Origin: Candidatus Multivoradales bacterium
GTDB taxonomy: Bacteria > Acidobacteriota > Thermoanaerobaculia > Multivoradales > JAHEKO01
Direction of reading: 5' to 3'
Length of the DNA stretch: 64,000 nt
Assembly: GCA_965223855.1 (NCBI GenBank)
Contig: CBDCXM010000008.1
Location: 32,001 to 96,000, forward strand
Shown piece by piece: positions 4,243-21,719 of the stretch. The notes under the pieces were generated by a model, which was not told the DNA's origin, made no database searches, and saw only the letters and a list, made by a program, of their open reading frames with translations. How positions within the stretch are numbered: position 1 is the stretch's first letter; every line of letters starts with the position of its first letter. The translations under genes and the position numbers were made by a program.

Positions 4243-7089
4243 GTGAAGTCCTCGACTCAAATCCTGAGCTCGTTTCTGCGCGGCGTTCGTTTCCTCTTCG
4301 ACTCCGCTGCTGCGGCCGTCTTCGTGCCTCCTCCTTCCGACGGCAGCCTCGAGCCGATTCTGGTGCATGACGGCGATCGGGACGCCTTGCACGAGTTCCG
4401 GTCGGTCGAGGCCGCCCAGAGCACGGTGGAGCAGCTGATGGCCGGAGGGCGGGTCGCAGACAGGAGACCCGCGGGCGACTCCGGCGGCGTCTGGATCCTG
4501 CCGATGGTCTCCGCCCCTCCGAAGCCCGCGGATCCACCCACGACCTCTCGACGCGCGGCCGACAACGATCCCGCCAGAAGGCCTCGAGCCTACCTCGCCG
4601 TCCACATCGACTCCGGCTCCGGGCAGGTGGACGATGCCGGGACGTCCGACCCGCGATGGCAGTGGGTGCGGGAGTTCGGAGCCGATCTGGCCGAGCAGGC
4701 GATCAGGGTCCACAGCACCCTGCGCGACCCGGTAACCGGCCTGGCAGACCGCATCGGCTTCCAGGCACTGCTCTCGGACCAGGTGGAGAGGGCGACGCAG
4801 GCAGGCACCTGGCTCTCTCTGGTCCTCATCAACCCTCACAACTTCGGTCAGGTCAACGAGCGCTTCGGCAGGTTCTCGGGAGACAAGGTGCTGCGCGAGG
4901 TCGCAGAGCTGATCTGCGACACGCTGCGGGAATCGGATCCGGTGTCTCGCTACGGCGGTGCGATCTTCGGCGCGCTGCTCCCTGCCACCCCTCCCGAGGA
5001 CGCCACGACCGTGGCGCACAAGCTCGTCCATACCGTGCGCGACAGCACGTTCCTGGACGGTGATGTCCGTCTCGAGCTGTGCTGCGGCGTCGCGTCCCTC
5101 GACCCGGGCGACCAGCCCCTCGGAGACCCTCTCGACCTCCTCAGGAGGGCCGACCTCGCTCTCAACCGGGCGCGGCGCGAGGGGGAGGGTGCGGTGGACG
5201 TGTGGGGGAAGGCTGGAGGTGAGGCAGAGGAGGGTCGCGTCGAGTCGGGGAGGATCAGCGAGCTCTTCAGCGGTGATCTTGCTCGCGACTACCGGAACAT
5301 GGCGCTGCTGCGGGACGCGGTCGACCTCGTCGCCGACACCCACGACCTCGAGACCCTGGCCGGAGCCGTCGTCGAACGGCTCTACTCCGCCTGCAAGGCC
5401 GAGCGGGTCGGGCTGTTCCGTCGCGCCGACGGTCAGCCTCAGCTGGTGCGCGGAATCGCTCGCCCCTCGACTCCGGTCGGAGCGCGACGGGAGACGTTCG
5501 AGCTCGAGCCCGCACCCGCCGCTCTCCTCGCCTCCGCCATGGAGCAGGCTTCCGTCCAGAGCCGGCCCGTGGAGATCGGAGACGGGCGGACTCACCTCGC
5601 CTTCGCAGTGCCGATCGTGGCCGGCGGCGAGGCGATCGGCGGCTTTTACATCGACGGAGCCGTCGAGTCGATCGACGTCGATGCAACCGACCTGATCTTC
5701 TTCAAAGCACTCTCTTCCCAGCTCTCGATCGCCCTCGAGCGAGCGCAACTCGAATCGAGCCGCAGCTCGAGCAGACTCGAGGAGGAGCTCCTCGAGCTGC
5801 GCACCGCAGTTCAAGAGAGCCAGCTGGTCCACACGTCAGAGTCGATGGCCCAGCTCCTGGACGCGGTCGATCGGGTCGGGCCGACCGAAGCTACGATCCT
5901 CATCACCGGCGAGAGCGGCACGGGCAAGGAGATGATCGCTCGCCGGCTTCACGAGTCGAGCGCACGCCGTCGCCGCGGCCTGACGGTCGTCGATTGCGCC
6001 GCCATCGCGCCGACTCTGATCGACAGCGAGCTGTTCGGCCACGACCAGGGTGCCTACACGGGCGCCCAGAGGCGCCGTTCCGGCAGGCTCGCCGAGGCCG
6101 ACGGCGGGACCGTCCTGCTCGACGAGGTCGGCGAGCTTCCGGTCGAGGTCCAGAGCCGCCTGTTGCGGTTCGTGCAGGAGAAGCAGATCACCCTGGTCGG
6201 CGAATCCCGGCCGCGCAAGATCGACGTCAGAATCCTCGCTGCGACGAATCGCGATCTCGAAGAGGAAGCGCGCGCCGGTCGGTTCCGGGAGGATCTCTAC
6301 CACCGTCTGAACGTCGTGAGGCTGGACGTGCCGCCTCTGCGCGACCGCCCGGACGACGTCGTCTTCCTCGCCGAGCACTTTCTCTCCCAGTTCTGCGATC
6401 AATACGGCAAGGTGGGCGCCCACCTCACCGCGGACGCCAGGGAGGCTCTCGTGCGCTACGACTGGCCCGGCAACGTCCGGGAGCTGCAGAACCGGATGCT
6501 GCAGGCGGTGATCCTGCTCGAAGGTCGCGCGCTGGCGGCAGCCAGTCTCGGGCTTCCTTCGGAACCGGCGCCACGAGTCGTCCAACGTTCTCGACCGGAG
6601 AAGGCTCCGAGAGCCGGCGCGACCGTCGAAGAGGCGCTCGACGAGTTGAGGCTCATCCTGCGCGGTCAGATCGAGGCGATCGTCGATCGCAGCCGGGCGG
6701 TCCATCTCCCGCTCGGGAAGTGGCTGGCGGAGGACCTTCTCGCCGAGGCCGACCTGGCCGAGGGAGGCACCGCCAGAAGGGCCGCGCAGCGTATCGGGCT
6801 GGCTGAGACGACCTACCGGCGTCGCCTTGCCCAGGCACAGGCCCGCGAACGCGCCGGGCTCGCTCCGAGGCCCGACGGGTGGCTGGACGTTCGCGAGGCG
6901 TTGACCCGACTCCTGCACGCCTCCGATCGCGACGGAAAGCCGCTGCTGAAGCTGGCCGAGGCGGCACTGCTCGACGAGATCGTCTCGCAGCTCGAGGGGG
7001 ACGAGGTCACGGGAGCCGCGCTCCTGGGAGTCACTCTACCGACGTACCGACGGCGCATCGAGAGTTGGCTGGACAGCGCCGGCACCTGA
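4243..7089 (+). CDS. Sigma-54 enhancer-binding protein with degenerate GGDEF, GAF, AAA+ and two C-terminal HTH-like segments
   Basis: 'GESGTGKE', 'ELFGHDQGAYTGA', 'LLDEVGE', 'FREDLYHRLNV' and 'WPGNVRELQN'. GGDEF-like 'RDPVTGL...LRESDPVSRYGGAIF'. Start uncertain (GTG 4201 or 4243); the 3991 start overlaps the opposite-strand E1 gene. Confidence 0.9.
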   Translation: MKSSTQILSSFLRGVRFLFDSAAAAVFVPPPSDGSLEPILVHDGDRDALHEFRSVEAAQSTVEQLMAGGRVADRRPAGDSGGVWILPMVSAPPKPADPPTTSRRAADNDPARRPRAYLAVHIDSGSGQVDDAGTSDPRWQWVREFGADLAEQAIRVHSTLRDPVTGLADRIGFQALLSDQVERATQAGTWLSLVLINPHNFGQVNERFGRFSGDKVLREVAELICDTLRESDPVSRYGGAIFGALLPATPPEDATTVAHKLVHTVRDSTFLDGDVRLELCCGVASLDPGDQPLGDPLDLLRRADLALNRARREGEGAVDVWGKAGGEAEEGRVESGRISELFSGDLARDYRNMALLRDAVDLVADTHDLETLAGAVVERLYSACKAERVGLFRRADGQPQLVRGIARPSTPVGARRETFELEPAPAALLASAMEQASVQSRPVEIGDGRTHLAFAVPIVAGGEAIGGFYIDGAVESIDVDATDLIFFKALSSQLSIALERAQLESSRSSSRLEEELLELRTAVQESQLVHTSESMAQLLDAVDRVGPTEATILITGESGTGKEMIARRLHESSARRRRGLTVVDCAAIAPTLIDSELFGHDQGAYTGAQRRRSGRLAEADGGTVLLDEVGELPVEVQSRLLRFVQEKQITLVGESRPRKIDVRILAATNRDLEEEARAGRFREDLYHRLNVVRLDVPPLRDRPDDVVFLAEHFLSQFCDQYGKVGAHLTADAREALVRYDWPGNVRELQNRMLQAVILLEGRALAAASLGLPSEPAPRVVQRSRPEKAPRAGATVEEALDELRLILRGQIEAIVDRSRAVHLPLGKWLAEDLLAEADLAEGGTARRAAQRIGLAETTYRRRLAQAQARERAGLAPRPDGWLDVREALTRLLHASDRDGKPLLKLAEAALLDEIVSQLEGDEVTGAALLGVTLPTYRRRIESWLDSAGT

Positions 7090-7205
7090 CAGACCGGACC
7101 TGACAGACCGGGCAGCGCAGAGCCCTCTCCCTCGAGGGGATACCGTCCCACCTCCACCCGCCGGCCACTCGGGTCCGAGGGCTCGGAGGGAGCGTGTTCC
7201 GACCC

Positions 7206-7225
7206 GCCTCGCCGCCCGGCGAGGC
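7206..7225. terminator. GC-rich hairpin between the convergent sigma-54 activator and peptide genes
   Basis: GCCTCGCCG-CC-CGGCGAGGC inverted repeat. No clear U-tract. Confidence 0.4.
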
Positions 7226-7286
7226 AGGGACTGAAGGGTGACTTCATCTCATCCGGCGCAGTCCTGTTGTCTCAGGGCCGGGACAG

Positions 7287-7457
7287 CTAGCCGCGGGAAG
7301 GGTCGACCAGAGGGGCCGGCGGCTCGTCGTCGCCGGTATCACCCTTCTCGTCGATGTAGTCCGAGGGACGGGCGAGGAATCCCTGATCGGCGCCCGTATC
7401 GGTCGCGGGGAGAACGGGGAGGACGGTCAGCATGAGGGCGAGAATCAGTCGAAGCAT
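7287..7457 (-). CDS. Small secreted acidic peptide, copy 1 (56 aa): MLRLILALMLTVLPVLPATDTGADQGFLARPSDYIDEKGDTGDDEPPAPLVDPSRG
   Basis: Manual translation. AAGGA RBS upstream of ATG, Sec-like hydrophobic N-terminus, paralogous to two neighbours. Below the ORF-track length cut-off. Confidence 0.88.
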   Translation of the reverse strand: MLRLILALMLTVLPVLPATDTGADQGFLARPSDYIDEKGDTGDDEPPAPLVDPSRG

Positions 7458-7539
7458 GGGTAGGGTCCTTTTTCAGAGGTTGAGCGCCTCCGGCGTGGGA
7501 AGGAGGCTCGTTCCAGCGGTGTCCTGACGGGAAGCTGGG

Positions 7540-7710
7540 CTACCAGGAACGGTCGTCGCGCAGCGGCGCAGGCGGCTCGTCGTCGCCCGTGTCGCCCTTC
7601 TCGTCGATGTAGTCCGAAGGCCGGGCCAGGAAGCCCTGGTCGACATCGGTATCGGTCGCGGGGAGGACGGGGAGGATGGTCAGCATGAGGCCGAGAATCA
7701 GTCGAAGCAT
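7540..7710 (-). CDS. Small secreted acidic peptide, copy 2 (56 aa): MLRLILGLMLTILPVLPATDTDVDQGFLARPSDYIDEKGDTGDDEPPAPLRDDRSW
   Basis: Manual translation. AAAGGA RBS. 47/56 aa identical to copy 1, with only synonymous changes in the 25-aa core. Confidence 0.88.
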   Translation of the reverse strand: MLRLILGLMLTILPVLPATDTDVDQGFLARPSDYIDEKGDTGDDEPPAPLRDDRSW

Positions 7711-7767
7711 GTGGATGTTCCTTTGTCGTGAGCAGGTTCGTTAGGGAAGGTCGCGATGCAGCTCTCG

Positions 7768-7941
7768 CTACCAGGACCGGTCGTCGCGCAGCGGCGCGGG
7801 CGGCTCGTCGTCGCCGGTATCACCCTTTTCGTCGATGTAGTCCGAAGGACGGGCGAGGAAGCCCTCGTCGGCTCCGTCGGTCGTCTGTGCCGGCAGCACC
7901 GGCAGCACGGTGAGAATCAATGCGATCATCCATCGGAACAT
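7768..7941 (-). CDS. Small secreted acidic peptide, copy 3 (57 aa): MFRWMIALILTVLPVLPAQTTDGADEGFLARPSDYIDEKGDTGDDEPPAPLRDDRSW
   Basis: Manual translation. GAGGAG RBS and the same invariant core. Confidence 0.88.
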   Translation of the reverse strand: MFRWMIALILTVLPVLPAQTTDGADEGFLARPSDYIDEKGDTGDDEPPAPLRDDRSW

Positions 7942-8191
7942 GGCGTTCTCCTCTTCTGGTCGTTCCGTTGCGTTGAAGTCGAAGCGACCTCATGATCGCT
8001 CCGACGGGTAGACACTTCTTGACACCCGGTCTTCGACGTTCGAGCGGCGTAGGGACCGCGCCGGGTCAACGATCGGCGGCCGAGACGGCGAAAAAACGGA
8101 GCAGCGGAAGCTCCGCAAGTGCGCATGCGGGGATGCGGGTCTTGCGACCCTCTCACTACAACCACCTGGTGTCCCTCAGCCATCGTTCGGT

Positions 8192-8220
8192 TTCGAGCCC
8201 CCCCGGGCCCGACGTATTAT
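8192..8220 (+). promoter_or_regulatory. Possible sigma-70 promoter for the sensor diguanylate cyclase
   Basis: TTCGAG-N17-TATTAT in a locally AT-rich patch about 70 nt before ATG 8293. Confidence 0.3.
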
Positions 8221-8292
8221 GTATCAGCTTTTAGCGCACACCCTCCGTCGCCGCAAGGGAGTCCGGCACAACGTCCGACTGGTGGAAGCCCG

Positions 8293-17559: not shown

Positions 17560-18771
17560 TCAGCCTTCGAAGACGATCTGCCAGCGACCGTCCTCGAACA
17601 GCCAGTACTGGCGCTTCTTCTTCGACCCGCGAAAGTTGTCGCTCTCGTAGCGCTGCAGGAAATCCACGACGACCATCGCGTCTTCGCCCGGATAGCCGAA
17701 GATCGAGAGATCCTCGAGAGCGACCCTGATGTAGCGCTTCGACGGGTTGACCCTTCTCTTGTGAGCTGCGAAAGCGGCGCGATTCATGTCGCTCGTCCGG
17801 AAACTCGAGGCGTAGTGCCCGAGGTAGGAGTCGGCGTCGCGGCTCTCCCAGTCGAGCCTCCACTGCTCGATCGCCTCGCCCACCGACTCGCGGACCGAGC
17901 GCATCGAGTCGGGCGACACCCAACGAACGCCGCGGGTGAGGACGACCGGAGTCGAACCGACATCCACCTGCTCCCTCAGCGTGGCGAAATCTTCGTTGCT
18001 GAGGGTGACGCACCCGCGGCTCGACAGGGGCGGGCGGCTGTACCGTTCGGACTCGGTACCGTGAATCCAGATCCCACTGCCGGTGCGTCCCTGCAGACGA
18101 TCCCATTCGTTGGGATAGTCGATCGGGAACGCCCCGAGGCCGTAGAGATCCGGCAGCGTCTCGCCCGGCAGATAGGAGGAGACGCGGTAGAGACCGGTCG
18201 GCGTCTTCTCGTCCCCCTCGTAGCGCTTGTCCGTGCCCCCCTTGCCGATCGAGACGTAGAAGTCGAGCACCCTCTCCGGCCGGTCACCGACCAGGGAGAA
18301 GAGGTACAGCCGGTAGGCTTCGGTATCGACGAGAATCACGTTGCGAGTCTTCTCGGGGAGCTGCAACAGCTCGGCAGGGACGGCCTCGGACGGCGGCCCT
18401 TCGAGATACCGGGCCAGACGCGCCTGAGCCTCCTCCCGAAGTCCCGAGACGCTTTCCACGCCGGCGGCTTCTCCACCGAACGCGGCCAGCGGCTCTCGCA
18501 TCGCCTGCAGAAGGTCTCCTCGCACCAGCTGCGCGAGTTCGAAGTCCGGACGACGCTCGAGAATCCGCGAGGTGTGATCCAGAGCGTCCTCGAGACGACC
18601 GGCCTGGATGTCCAGGAGCGTCCAGATGAGGCGTTCCTCGATCGACGAGGTCGCCTGCCCCGAAGCCCCGATCTGGTGCCCGGCTTCGTCGAGTGCCTCG
18701 ACGCTTCCCGAGCCCAGAGCACAGAGCGAGGCCGCCAGAACAGCGATCCCGAGGTGCCGGCGTCGGCTCAC
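17560..18771 (-). CDS. L,D-transpeptidase (YkuD) with C-terminal NTF2-like domain
   Basis: 'EGDEKTPTGLY', 'GIWIHG...SSRGCVTL'. GTG start overlaps the upstream stop; signal peptide follows. Confidence 0.88.
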   Translation of the reverse strand: MSRRRHLGIAVLAASLCALGSGSVEALDEAGHQIGASGQATSSIEERLIWTLLDIQAGRLEDALDHTSRILERRPDFELAQLVRGDLLQAMREPLAAFGGEAAGVESVSGLREEAQARLARYLEGPPSEAVPAELLQLPEKTRNVILVDTEAYRLYLFSLVGDRPERVLDFYVSIGKGGTDKRYEGDEKTPTGLYRVSSYLPGETLPDLYGLGAFPIDYPNEWDRLQGRTGSGIWIHGTESERYSRPPLSSRGCVTLSNEDFATLREQVDVGSTPVVLTRGVRWVSPDSMRSVRESVGEAIEQWRLDWESRDADSYLGHYASSFRTSDMNRAAFAAHKRRVNPSKRYIRVALEDLSIFGYPGEDAMVVVDFLQRYESDNFRGSKKKRQYWLFEDGRWQIVFEG

Positions 18772-19781
18772 GACTCGGTCGACTCCTCTGCATCGATGCG
18801 CCAGGAATCTCCGGATCGGACGAGATCGAGCACCTTGACGACCGTGTCCTGAAAGCTGTCCGAGCGGTAGCGCTGCAGGAATCTCACCTGCACTCGACCG
18901 GAGCCGGCGGGACGTACCGCGATCGACTCGACGGCGACTTCGATGAACCTCGGCCCTTCGATCCTCTGCCTTCTTTGCCGTTCCCACTCCGCCCGACTGC
19001 GATCGGCCGGGGAGAAGTCCGGCGAGTAGTAGCCGAGATAGGCATTCACGTCCTGATCGGACCATGCCTGTGCCCAGGCGCGGACGAACCCCGCCACGGC
19101 CGCCGCATCGAACTGCGCCCTCGGCTCGTCGGCGGCGGGGCCGGAGGCATCACCTTGCCCGCCGGTGGGAGTCGGGTCTCCGAGCGGCTCGGCCGGAGCG
19201 ACCCGCTCGGTGAGAGGAGCCTTGACGGCAACTCTTCCCGACGAGGGAGCCGCCGTCTGCGGGACGGCTTCGCCCCCGTCGCTCCCGGACTCGAGGCCGC
19301 CGAGCAGCCGAAGATCCGGGCCGGCCGTCCCATCGCTCGACTCCTGACCGAGCGCGCGGTCGTAGGCACGACTCGCGAGCTTCCCGTAGACCTTCGTGAG
19401 GTTGTCGTAGGCGGTGCCGTAGCTCGAATGAGTGGCGAGCGCCAGCTTGAGGATCTCGACGGCACGCTCGTACTCGCCCCGCTCGGCGTAGAGGACAGCA
19501 AGGTTGTTGAACGGCTCCGGGTAGTCAGGATGGCTGCGCGTCAGTTCGAGGAAGATCTCCTCAGCCTCGGCCTCCCGGCCCGATCGAGCGAGCACGACCC
19601 CCTTGACGAACTGCGCTTCGGCGGAACCGTTGCCCTCGATCTCCGCATCCAACAGGCTGAGAGCCTCCGGTAGCCGGCCCTCCGACGCTGCTCTCGTTGC
19701 TCGCTCGATCGCCCCCTCCTGCGCCGCCAGTCCGCCGGCGAGCAGAGCGGCCGCAACCGCCGCGCACACCCGTCTCGTCAT
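18768..19781 (-). CDS. Secreted TPR protein with C-terminal NTF2-like domain
   Basis: 'PEPFNNLAVLYAERGEYERA' TPR, C-terminal 'WAQAWSDQDVNAYLGYYS...FLQRYRS'. Confidence 0.8.
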   Translation of the reverse strand: MTRRVCAAVAAALLAGGLAAQEGAIERATRAASEGRLPEALSLLDAEIEGNGSAEAQFVKGVVLARSGREAEAEEIFLELTRSHPDYPEPFNNLAVLYAERGEYERAVEILKLALATHSSYGTAYDNLTKVYGKLASRAYDRALGQESSDGTAGPDLRLLGGLESGSDGGEAVPQTAAPSSGRVAVKAPLTERVAPAEPLGDPTPTGGQGDASGPAADEPRAQFDAAAVAGFVRAWAQAWSDQDVNAYLGYYSPDFSPADRSRAEWERQRRQRIEGPRFIEVAVESIAVRPAGSGRVQVRFLQRYRSDSFQDTVVKVLDLVRSGDSWRIDAEESTES

Positions 19782-19883
19782 TGCCTCTCCTTCACGCTTT
19801 CCTCAGGCTTCCTGCCGCCAAAGCCGAGTCAAATGCTAGCACGGCTCCGGGCGGCCCGAACTGCGCGACAATGGCTCGAAATC

Positions 19884-19908
19884 GGAACTTTTTCCGGCTT
19901 CGGGCGTT
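19884..19908 (+). promoter_or_regulatory. ECF sigma-type autoregulatory promoter
   Basis: GGAAC-N16-CGTT, 10 nt upstream of the ECF sigma GTG. Confidence 0.7.
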
Positions 19909-19918
19909 GGAGCTAGAC

Positions 19919-20503
19919 GTGGAGACGGCCGTTCACCATACGCATGAACCGGACGACGCGGAACTCTTCCGTCGGGCGCGTGCCGGTGACCACCAGGCCC
20001 TCGGCGACCTGGTCGACCGGCACAAGGACGCGCTGGTCAACTACCTCACCCGGATCAGCGGCCGCCGCGAGACCGCCGAGGACACCGCGCAGGAGACCTT
20101 CCTCAAGCTCCTTCAGCACAGCGACCGTTACGTCGAGCGCGGACGCTTGCTCCCGTACATTTACCGCATCGCCACCAACCTCGTGCGCTCGGAGCAGAGG
20201 AGAAACCAGCGCTGGCGGCTCCTCCATCCCCGGCTGCTCGCAGGGAGCGAGCGCTCGGCCCCTCCGGCTCAGCATCACGGGATGGAACGCCGCCAACTCG
20301 GCAAAGTGCTGACCGGTGCGCTGGCTCAGCTGCCGTCCCGCTATCGGGTCCCTGTCGTCCTGCGAGACATCGAGGGCTGGGCCTACTCCGAGATCGCCGA
20401 CGTGCTCGGGGTCAGGCCGGGCACCGTCAAATCCCGCCTGCACCGGGGTCGCGCGCTCCTGCGCGACCTCGTTCGTCCTCACTGGAACGGAGTTTCGTCA
20501 TGA
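19919..20503 (+). CDS. ECF RNA polymerase sigma factor
   Basis: 'AEDTAQETFLK', 'YIYRIATN' and 'LRDIEGWAYSEIADVLGVRPGTVKSRLHRGR'. Confidence 0.92.
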   Translation: METAVHHTHEPDDAELFRRARAGDHQALGDLVDRHKDALVNYLTRISGRRETAEDTAQETFLKLLQHSDRYVERGRLLPYIYRIATNLVRSEQRRNQRWRLLHPRLLAGSERSAPPAQHHGMERRQLGKVLTGALAQLPSRYRVPVVLRDIEGWAYSEIADVLGVRPGTVKSRLHRGRALLRDLVRPHWNGVSS

Positions 20504-20934
20504 ATCGAGAACGCTCACCCTCGACCGAGGACGTGCGCAGAGCCCTCGGCTCGCTGCCACGCCACGCAGCGAGCGCAGGATTCACAGCGCGGCTGCTCTC
20601 CAGACACGCCGCCGCAGGGAGGCCCTCACCCCGACCGGGAATCCCGCGACTCGCACTCGCGATCGCGGCTGGCCTGATCGTGGTCTTCGGCCTGTTCGCG
20701 GTTCGCGGCCGGGTCACGCAGCAGCGGGAGGCCCGTCTCGCACGCGAGCATGCCGCTCTCTCGCTGGAGCTCGAGGCTCTCGATCGCCGCCTGCGGCAGG
20801 CCGAGACAATCTACGTCGGCAGCGATGCCGAGACCGATCTCGTGCTCTCGGTCGATGCCCTGGCTGCACTTTCCTCGACACGCAACTCGACCCTCTCCCC
20901 CGCCCTGTCCCAGCGTCAGGGTCCCCGACACTGA
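20500..20934 (+). CDS. Putative membrane anti-sigma factor
   Basis: Overlaps the sigma stop. 'ALGSLPRHAASAGFTARLL' followed by one TM helix and a short coiled coil. Confidence 0.65.
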   Translation: MNRERSPSTEDVRRALGSLPRHAASAGFTARLLSRHAAAGRPSPRPGIPRLALAIAAGLIVVFGLFAVRGRVTQQREARLAREHAALSLELEALDRRLRQAETIYVGSDAETDLVLSVDALAALSSTRNSTLSPALSQRQGPRH

Positions 20935-20984
20935 GAAGGCCCGGTACCGCCCGCACCGGCTGCGATTCACCTCAAGGAGTCATC

Positions 20985-21719
20985 ATGGTTCGTCTACCCG
21001 CCCTCGTCGCCGTCCTCGCCTCACTCGCCGTCCCGCTCGAGGCTCAGCACCGGACGGAGGAGTTTCGCAGCGAGAAGGTCTTCGTCTTTCGTGGCGGGCC
21101 GGGGGCTGCGCTTCGCCTCTCGACCTCCCATCTCGAAGGCGCGCACCTCGGCGTGACGACTCTCGACATGACCGAAGAGTTGCGCGCCCATTTCGGTGTC
21201 AGCACCGATCGCGGCGTGCTCGTCTCTTCGGTCCTCGAGGACTCGCCTGCCGGGCGTGCCGGTATCCGGGTCGCCGACATCGTCGCCCAGCTCGACGGGC
21301 AGCCTGTCTCCGGCTCGCTGATGCTCGCCGCCGCGATCGGACACAGACAGCCGAGCGACAGAATCGAGTTGGTGGTCGTGCGCGACGGCACCACGATCTC
21401 CTCGACGATCGAACTCGGCGAGGCGACGCGACGCCGGCTCGATCTCAGCCCGCTGCTGCTCGAAGCGCCCGTCGTCGAGGGTCGCTTCCAAGCGATGCGA
21501 GGCGAGCCGGCACCGGTGCTGCGCGAGGTGGAGACCGAGTTCGCCGCACCTCTCGGCCTGGACGCTCTCCTCACCCGAGTGAGTCAGCAGCTCGAAGATG
21601 AAGCCGTTCGCCAGCAACTCGACCTGCTCCTCCAGGAGCGCGATCTGCTGAGGCTCCAGGTCGAGAAACTGGAGACTCGCCTCGAGAGACTCGAGAGCGA
21701 TCTGTCCTCGCGACGGTGA
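20985..21719 (+). CDS. Secreted PDZ-domain protein with C-terminal coiled coil
   Basis: AAGGAG RBS, signal peptide and 'GVLVSSVLEDSPAGRAGIRVADIV'. Confidence 0.82.
   Translation: MVRLPALVAVLASLAVPLEAQHRTEEFRSEKVFVFRGGPGAALRLSTSHLEGAHLGVTTLDMTEELRAHFGVSTDRGVLVSSVLEDSPAGRAGIRVADIVAQLDGQPVSGSLMLAAAIGHRQPSDRIELVVVRDGTTISSTIELGEATRRRLDLSPLLLEAPVVEGRFQAMRGEPAPVLREVETEFAAPLGLDALLTRVSQQLEDEAVRQQLDLLLQERDLLRLQVEKLETRLERLESDLSSRR

Follow-up and report, generated by a model that had tools for sequence, protein, structure and literature searches.

The window of DNA studied here, a stretch of 64,000 nucleotides from Candidatus Multivoradales bacterium (assembly GCA_965223855.1, contig CBDCXM010000008.1, positions 32,001 to 96,000), contains a lineage-specific signalling locus of uncultured Thermoanaerobaculia (Acidobacteriota) that is built around cyclic di-GMP (c-di-GMP) and carries two additions of unassigned role, namely a tandem array of small peptide genes and a cassette for a ribosomally synthesised and post-translationally modified peptide (RiPP). 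Throughout, "the window" means this whole stretch, which has a G+C content of 64-71% and lies on contig 8 of a 4.5 Mb source genome in 9 contigs; the source names of homologues likewise point to class Thermoanaerobaculia of the Acidobacteriota. In the model that we propose, a diguanylate cyclase with a double-propeller/YYY sensor would sense from the periplasm and make c-di-GMP, a coupled GGDEF-EAL protein would remove it, and a sigma-54 activator would read it by the RxxD I-site of a dead GGDEF domain and change transcription at sigma-54 promoters. Between activator and cyclase, one to three tandem genes for putatively exported peptides appear to have been inserted with a sigma-70-type promoter of their own, and a five-gene RiPP cassette with a 54-residue precursor would be transcribed together with the cyclase and phosphodiesterase genes that precede it.

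The original prediction had placed an activator, a peptide array, a cyclase and a GGDEF-EAL gene between positions 4243 and 13391, and all of these are present as placed. The gene coordinates (Table 1) bear out its arrangement of the array, which converges on the activator and is transcribed away from the cyclase. The span itself was given correctly; as a functional unit, however, it does not end at 13391, since the operon continues into the RiPP cassette.

The evidence for a c-di-GMP relay centres on the activator. In this protein an N-terminal region of no known family is followed by a degenerate GGDEF domain, a GAF domain, an AAA+ sigma-54 domain and a long C-terminal region, with Pfam matches to Sigma54_activat (PF00158, 2.4e-63; cut-off 20.2 bits), GGDEF (7.5e-26), GAF (6.7e-06) and AAA_lid_14. 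A Walker A motif and a GAFTGA-type loop define the sigma-54 activator family, and both are intact here (GESGTGKE and GAYTGA), which places the protein among the AAA+ sigma-54 activators. The corresponding sigma factor gene, rpoN, is present in the genome (PF04552, 210 bits).

The GGDEF domain of the activator had been called dead, and its translation agrees: it reads RESD-PVSRY-GGAIF, with an RxxD at the I-site position exactly five residues before a GG[DE]EF motif that has degenerated to GGAIF. Across 45 aligned homologues RxxD is found in 45 and a catalytic GG[DE]EF in none. Retention of RxxD together with loss of GG[DE]EF is the signature of receptor-type GGDEF domains. PelD, PopA and SgmT are I-site receptors with such degenerate domains, having lost the catalytic motif and kept RxxD, and they bind c-di-GMP as a signal rather than as an inhibiting product. 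The same motif pattern is apparent in the window protein, but its output domain is a sigma-54 activator. Because a receptor-type GGDEF is conserved throughout the family, the step from c-di-GMP to the activator is well supported by sequence, and binding would occur through the I-site. The relay that had been proposed from cyclase and phosphodiesterase to the activator is thus strengthened at the level of motifs. The combination of GGDEF, GAF and sigma-54 AAA+ domains occurs in about 46 protein clusters, and those with a source name come from metagenome-assembled genomes (MAGs) of Acidobacteriota. No title or abstract that we found describes this dead-GGDEF/GAF/sigma-54 AAA+ architecture, which is no proof of its being unpublished.

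The two enzymes that would set the c-di-GMP level also carry the expected motifs. The cyclase consists of a signal or anchor segment, a periplasmic sensor of a double Reg_prop propeller and a YYY domain (approximately 8491-10740), a transmembrane helix, a coiled coil and a GGDEF domain, with Pfam matches to Reg_prop (2.3e-41), Y_Y_Y (1.9e-13) and GGDEF (PF00990, 1.1e-35). Its GGDEF domain is intact, as in active diguanylate cyclases, and is preceded by an RTSD I-site, and R-x-S-D and GGDEF are both invariant in 15 of 15 orthologues. The GGDEF-EAL protein matches EAL (PF00563, 4.8e-74) and GGDEF (5e-38), the latter intact but without RxxD. From the list of catalytic motifs of EAL domains (EAL, DDFGTG and others), EALLRW, ELEITES, DDFGTG and QGFLF are present, consistent with a phosphodiesterase. 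Its ATG shares one base with the stop codon of the cyclase gene (TAATG), an overlap that fits the translational coupling originally claimed.

The N-terminus of the GGDEF-EAL protein is receiver-like, scoring 23.7 bits against a Pfam cut-off of 30.2, and may be a pseudo-receiver. By eye, this domain (window 11640-12100) appears to have a Glu at the position of the phospho-acceptor Asp. A paralogous propeller cyclase lies elsewhere in the same genome (L034; G000 contig 9, 476000-493000), where it has an adjacent gene of the GGDEF-EAL type and an activator-like AAA+ gene but no peptide.

Each of the three peptide genes in the window is preceded by a GGAG/AAGGA ribosome-binding site. Differences among the three copies fall mostly at third codon positions, the intergenic DNA has diverged freely, and the ratio of non-synonymous to synonymous substitution rates (dN/dS) is 0.16-0.23 at dS 0.5-0.9 (Nei-Gojobori). 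The third-position bias and the low dN/dS show that these are real genes rather than chance open reading frames (ORFs). A stretch of 25 residues is identical in all three. The window peptides matched nothing in Pfam or NCBIfam and gave no usable match in the ESM Atlas, and no further copy was found elsewhere in the source genome.

For the family as a whole 31 unique peptides were tallied. All begin with M-[FIL]-R and have some 15 hydrophobic residues that include an invariant Pro, a linker rich in Ser, Gly and Thr, and an acidic motif in the short C-terminal part. Exactly two Cys, 2-9 residues apart, are present in 27 of the 31 variants; the other four, which have none, are the three window peptides and a variant from a metagenome (L054). 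The hydrophobic N-terminus is of the Sec-signal type, from which export is predicted. Mean pairwise identity is 0.48 over the N-terminal 18 columns against 0.23 over the remainder, and a better-conserved N-terminus of this kind agrees with a segment kept in the membrane no less than with a signal peptide that is discarded. In one metagenome locus (L055:13168-13844) three peptide copies have identical protein sequence, unlike the old and diverged triplet of the window, suggesting that these copies were duplicated recently or made alike by gene conversion.

The distribution of the family is narrow. A search of 41 genomes with a single sequence detected it in one congener only and missed G001, G003, G004, G012 and G016. 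A profile search of 45 genomes gave seven strong matches, covering all five genomes of the genus, with 1-3 copies of the gene in each, and two other genera of the same family; two further weak matches are probably due to chance. G005, which is flagged as unpublished, counts only in the genome tallies and supports no claim. No member turned up in a sample of 400 further genomes of the class. In a set of 5.8 billion clustered proteins the family amounts to 22 clusters, all unnamed or annotated "hypothetical" and all from Acidobacteriota/Thermoanaerobaculia MAGs, and an exhaustive hidden Markov model (HMM) scan of 1.84 billion representatives returned 19 small proteins and two marginal long ones.

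Gene order around the peptides was compared across a set made up of GTDB genomes and 51 metagenome loci fetched with the N-terminal half of the activator, which together yielded 11 distinct loci with peptides. In all 11 the activator is the convergent neighbour. The divergent neighbour is the cyclase in eight of the nine loci where this could be assessed (the remaining two end at a contig edge), and the RiPP cassette follows the cyclase in nine of nine assessable operons. The co-occurrence foreseen in the original prediction is thus borne out, and peptide homologues away from these genes, which would have spoken against it, were looked for and none was found. This gene order is kept while activator identity drops to about 39-41% across the clade that bears peptides, so the linkage is old and has been maintained.

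Activator-cyclase pairs without peptides are common. Of 29 activator loci that lack a peptide although 900 bp or more of sequence is available downstream (two pairs of them identical), 12 have the cyclase nearby. Hence the peptides are a later addition and not the core of the module. In the peptide-less loci an L,D-transpeptidase gene lies close to the cyclase (in the window it lies beyond the cassette), implying that the ancestral order was probably activator, cyclase, transpeptidase. One lineage probably gained the peptides and, at a different site, the cassette together with the GGDEF-EAL gene.

Upstream of the peptide array we found a candidate sigma-70-type promoter. The pattern TTGCxx, a spacer of 17-18 nt and TAxAAx recurs in six of six aligned type-B loci, each time with a TGTGxx box, which in the window lies just upstream (8265-8270), and a run of G just downstream (approximately 8197-8210), near the predicted transcript start. 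One of the six is G003, in which the cyclase is no longer a neighbour, which assigns the element to the peptide genes rather than the cyclase. In the two type-A loci that were examined, the peptides are preceded by TAGACA and TACCAT, 16 nt apart. A strict promoter consensus scan did not list the window candidate. The peptide leader of about 270 nt also contains a terminator-like hairpin followed by T6 (one found against a shuffle mean of 0.7), which is not visibly conserved in the type-B alignment. An Rfam search of 6900-8700 at a permissive E of up to 5 gave no match, so that the leader with its hairpin is no known riboswitch.

Downstream of the GGDEF-EAL gene, the S26-like, HprK-like and PqqD genes follow directly with ends that overlap or nearly abut, and the radical S-adenosylmethionine (SAM) and precursor genes are convergent with them. 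The five genes together contain what marks a RiPP cassette, that is, a radical SAM protein with a SPASM domain, a PqqD-type protein and an adjacent conserved precursor. The precursor ORF lies between the PqqD and radical-SAM genes in the window and in eight other loci, with a C-terminal Ser in nine of nine. The radical-SAM enzyme gave below-cut-off NCBIfam matches to many peptide maturases. Scores fell well short of the cut-offs for GeoRSP_rSAM (64.7 against 400) and geo_PqqD_fam (37.1 against 100), as they did for ScmC (31.1 against 125) and HprK_rel_A (30.2 against 200). Among 11 orthologues of the S26-like protein, ten carry GxCMxP and one (in G009) carries GHSMEP with Ser, and the HR motif is conserved. 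The exchange of Cys for Ser at this position suggests an active nucleophile. SipW is an example of a dedicated signal peptidase, and we considered such a role towards the tandem peptides for the S26-like protein. It was rejected, as the protein has no membrane segment and is present in the peptide-less cassette of G017.

That cassette stands alone beside a TetR regulator and a resistance-nodulation-division (RND) efflux pump, and another without a cyclase is found in G048; no peptide of the tandem type was found with either. When the regions preceding the radical-SAM gene were aligned, no conserved promoter element emerged, and no transporter or membrane protease was found between window positions 1 and 21719. 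Activators also occur beside cassette genes in loci without cyclase or peptides: in L084 (98-2975) an activator of this enhancer-binding protein family is directly followed by the S26-like gene, and in L052 (G007 contig 378) a short AAA+ activator lies inside the cassette between precursor and PqqD. Past the cassette lie cell-envelope genes (16642-21719), which encode an amidase of the MpaA-like kind, a YkuD L,D-transpeptidase with a Cds6_C domain, a TPR and Cds6_C protein, an extracytoplasmic function (ECF) sigma factor and a PDZ protein.

Table 1. Genes and candidate control elements of the locus, in window coordinates.
Feature	Position	Strand	Basis and remarks
Sigma-54 enhancer-binding protein, 948 residues	4243 (GTG)-7089	+	Pfam, translation, start context
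Peptide gene 3, 56 residues; hydrophobic N-terminus, acidic C-terminal part, no Cys	7287-7457	-	ORF, ribosome-binding site, codon-position differences, dN/dS
Peptide gene 2, 56 residues	7540-7710	-	ORF, ribosome-binding site, codon-position differences, dN/dS
Peptide gene 1, 57 residues, nearest the cyclase	7768-7941	-	ORF, ribosome-binding site, codon-position differences, dN/dS
Terminator-like hairpin, then T6, in the leader of peptide gene 1	8096-8116	-	1 found against a shuffle mean of 0.7
Candidate sigma-70-type promoter of the peptide array: TTGCGG, 17-nt spacer, TAAAAG	8228-8256	-	Conserved in alignment
Diguanylate cyclase (predicted)	Likely ATG 8293-11640; start uncertain, open frame from 8119	+	Pfam, alignment
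GGDEF-EAL protein, probable c-di-GMP phosphodiesterase	11640-13391	+	Pfam, motifs, start overlap
S24/S26-like peptidase, 142 residues, no transmembrane segment	13451-13879	+	Cys at nucleophile position (GACMEP), HRV motif
HprK-related kinase-like protein, overlapping both neighbours	13855-14790	+	Weak below-cut-off NCBIfam ScmC, HprK_rel_A/B; synteny
PqqD-family peptide chaperone (RiPP recognition element)	14787-15065	+	PF05402 4e-14; GeoRSP PqqD 3.2e-09, below cut-off
Precursor-like peptide, 54 residues	15174-15338	-	Conserved leader LSRE[RK]LEALAVVC, two Cys, invariant C-terminal Ser
Radical SAM/SPASM maturase, 363 residues from ATG 16488	15397-16488	-	Radical_SAM 1.4e-21, SPASM 2.9e-08

What the tandem peptides do is a separate matter from the relay. 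With a confidence somewhat short of an even chance, we lean towards a reading in which they act outside the cytoplasm on the cyclase sensor, either as its ligand or as a small-protein modulator. This is supported by their conserved placement beside the sensor, by their exported-type N-terminus and by the fast evolution of both peptides and first propeller. Compared with its congeners the cyclase is 34-42% identical in the first propeller, 51-59% in the second propeller and YYY domain and 77-83% in the cytoplasmic part, so that the first propeller and the peptides, at 25-35% identity between congeners, are the fastest-evolving parts of the locus. That fast evolution is to be expected of small proteins and periplasmic domains in any case is neutral or counts against the idea. 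When the periplasmic domain (750 residues, 15-row alignment) and the mature peptide (residues 19-56, aligned in 12 rows) were predicted as a complex, the score was 0.01, with the mark at 0.32, which speaks neither for nor against binding.

Several observations weigh against this reading or against parts of the wider circuit. To our knowledge no peptide ligand of a Reg_prop/YYY sensor has been described. The experimentally shown ligands that we found for such sensors are oligosaccharides only, as far as the available text of PMC3243724 goes, and in Xanthomonas the Reg_prop/YYY-type sensor domain of the cyclases GdpX2 and GdpX3 is listed, in the part of PMC6637768 at hand, as of unknown function. 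In a tree of 44 activators from a quick IQ-TREE run, from which G002 was left out as its activator is cut by the contig end, all peptide-bearing rows form one clade (11 rows; support of 97 in the Shimodaira-Hasegawa-like approximate likelihood ratio test, SH-aLRT), and the co-occurrence therefore counts as one evolutionary gain rather than a repeated association. In G003 the activator and two peptide genes (L047:10922-11975, contig 286) are separated from the cyclase-to-radical-SAM operon, which lies on another contig; a tRNA-Thr gene is found at the breakpoint. The cleavage site of the peptides is not canonical in all members, which leaves both cleavage and membrane anchoring possible, and the existence of four Cys-less variants shows that the two-Cys loop is dispensable. 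The RiPP is a second candidate signal in the same cluster. As for the targets of the activator, a scan for -24/-12 elements with two mismatches gave 13 matches against 12.9 expected, the single such match inside the cluster (13213-13228) lacks the -12 GC, and a loose scan of the cluster's intergenic regions gave nothing convincing, the best match being 8/12.

A more demanding version of the idea has the peptides cleaved into diffusible autoinducers, so that density would be reported through the propeller to c-di-GMP and on to the activator, which would feed back on peptide expression. We regard such quorum sensing as improbable. Its anatomy is there, with an exported-type N-terminus, tandem copies that vary from one to three, a tight and conserved linkage to sensor and activator, and a pherotype-like pattern in which peptides and first propeller evolve fastest. 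Against it, the rate of change is what small proteins and periplasmic domains show anyway, and an N-terminus that is the best-conserved part of the peptide would be unusual for a signal peptide that is discarded. The feedback through sigma-54 that had been suggested for peptide expression is not borne out: no -24/-12 element was found in any intergenic region of the cluster, leaving direct sigma-54 control of the array unsupported, and the conserved element that precedes the array is of the sigma-70 type in six of six type-B loci, not the arrangement expected of peptide autoinduction; indirect control is conceivable. Moreover, the cluster contains no dedicated exporter or membrane-bound processing protease, the S26-like protein being without a transmembrane segment and belonging to the cassette. 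Hence, of the quorum-like system first envisaged, the anatomy and the conserved linkage stand, and the dedicated export and processing machinery and the autoinduction promoter do not. That the peptides are pheromones sensed by the propeller, with peptide and first propeller co-diversifying into pherotypes and the RiPP under the same control, is likewise doubtful in our view.

It is also conceivable, though rather unlikely, that the signal or product of the locus is the radical-SAM-modified 54-residue precursor, with the c-di-GMP genes and activator regulating or answering it and the small peptides either accessory, as carrier, immunity factor or partner, or unrelated to sensing. The cyclase, phosphodiesterase, S26-like, HprK-like and PqqD genes form one closely packed operon, activators recur beside the cassette (L084 and G007), the clade that has the peptides is also the one with the cassette, and the invariant C-terminal Ser of the precursor recalls lasso-peptide clusters, where HprK-family kinases phosphorylate such a residue according to the portion of PMC6993621 consulted. 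On the other hand, a cluster without an exporter may make an intracellular product, the stand-alone cassettes of G017 and G048 need neither cyclase nor peptides, and the region upstream of the radical-SAM gene lacks a conserved promoter element. A comparably small share of our belief goes to the peptides being outputs, that is, secreted acidic or Cys-loop peptides with metal-binding, matrix or antagonistic roles that merely neighbour a cyclase whose propeller senses glycans in the manner of the Bacteroides hybrid two-component sensors. The oligosaccharide ligands known for this sensor architecture (PMC3243724, in part) favour this, as do the many Reg_prop/YYY paralogues without peptides in these genomes, the activator-cyclase pairs that lack peptides in most loci and the unlinked peptides of G003. 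It is harder to reconcile with an activator-peptides-cyclase order kept over deep divergence in eight of nine assessable loci, with a peptide family found nowhere else, and with a sigma-70-type promoter that makes the array no obvious target of the adjacent activator. Finally, it is very improbable that the tandem peptides are additional radical-SAM/SPASM substrates (carrying, for example, thioether cross-links) with the N-terminus as leader. The Cys pair of most variants, the RiPP-like pairing of a conserved N-terminus with a variable C-terminus, and the occurrence of peptides and cassette in one clade would agree with this. We rejected it as the enzyme already has its own typical, conserved precursor beside it and four peptides, the window's three and that of L054, have no Cys and are yet under purifying selection; a membrane-inserting hydrophobic leader would also be atypical, and the stand-alone cassettes have no such peptide.

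Comparison with known systems places the parts of the locus in familiar company and sets the whole apart. FleQ, VpsR and Nla24 bind c-di-GMP on their AAA+ or receiver-like domains. Here, unlike in those proteins, the AAA+ domain carries an N-terminal fusion to a separate degenerate GGDEF domain with a conserved RxxD I-site and, after it, a GAF domain. As in the FleQ (Pseudomonas), VpsR (Vibrio) and Nla24/EpsI (Myxococcus) systems described in the accessible parts of PMC3424551 and PMC4877007, the window encodes what looks like a c-di-GMP-responsive AAA+ activator of the sigma-54 type, in a triad of cyclase, phosphodiesterase and effector with a transcriptional output. The periplasmic sensor, of about 750 residues with Reg_prop and YYY, is the same as in the hybrid two-component systems of Bacteroides; those, however, have oligosaccharide ligands and pass the signal along a chain of kinase, receiver and DNA-binding domains (PMC3243724, in part), whereas here the output is a GGDEF cyclase. 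A cyclase output is shared with Xanthomonas GdpX2 and GdpX3, going by what is available of PMC6637768.

The peptides invite comparison with small-protein modulators, which they would resemble if their N-terminus stays in the membrane, and with pheromones. MgrB, a small membrane protein that modulates PhoQ, is similarly about 50 residues long, with a hydrophobic segment at its N-terminus and little in the periplasm beyond a short stretch, usually with two Cys (PMC2789325, PMC8404706, each in part); the proposed site of action, the periplasmic or membrane part of a sensor, is also alike. It has no sequence relationship to the window peptides, is not encoded beside phoQ and is controlled by PhoP; a peptide of the window family, unlike MgrB, is encoded beside the sensor, occurs in multiple copies and may be cleaved. 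Firmicutes peptide quorum sensing (Agr, Com) also combines a small precursor gene beside a membrane sensor with fast diversification of the peptide. Unlike in Agr or Com, we found no dedicated exporter, protease or autoinduction promoter, and the proposed receptor is a cyclase and not a histidine kinase. The cassette contains the same protein types and a short, Ser-ending precursor as the GeoRSP, SynChlorMet and lasso HprK clusters (PMC6993621, as far as its text was available). It differs from GeoRSP and SynChlorMet in scoring far below the NCBIfam cut-offs, in an extra Cys-type S24/S26-like peptidase and in its fusion to a c-di-GMP operon.

Collectively, three elements of the locus were absent from the families and papers that we found: a family of sigma-54 activators with a dead-GGDEF I-site domain, conserved beside a probable cyclase; a narrow and unannotated family of putatively exported peptides between sensor and activator; and a c-di-GMP operon fused to a radical-SAM RiPP cassette. 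Should neither the peptides nor the RiPP be the ligand of the sensor, the locus would still provide a clean and testable triad of cyclase, phosphodiesterase and effector. If one of them is the ligand, it would represent a direct link from a peptide to a second messenger and offer a first way into the study of signalling between cells of uncultured Thermoanaerobaculia, and if the pheromone reading were true, this would be peptide quorum sensing with a new type of receptor in Acidobacteria.

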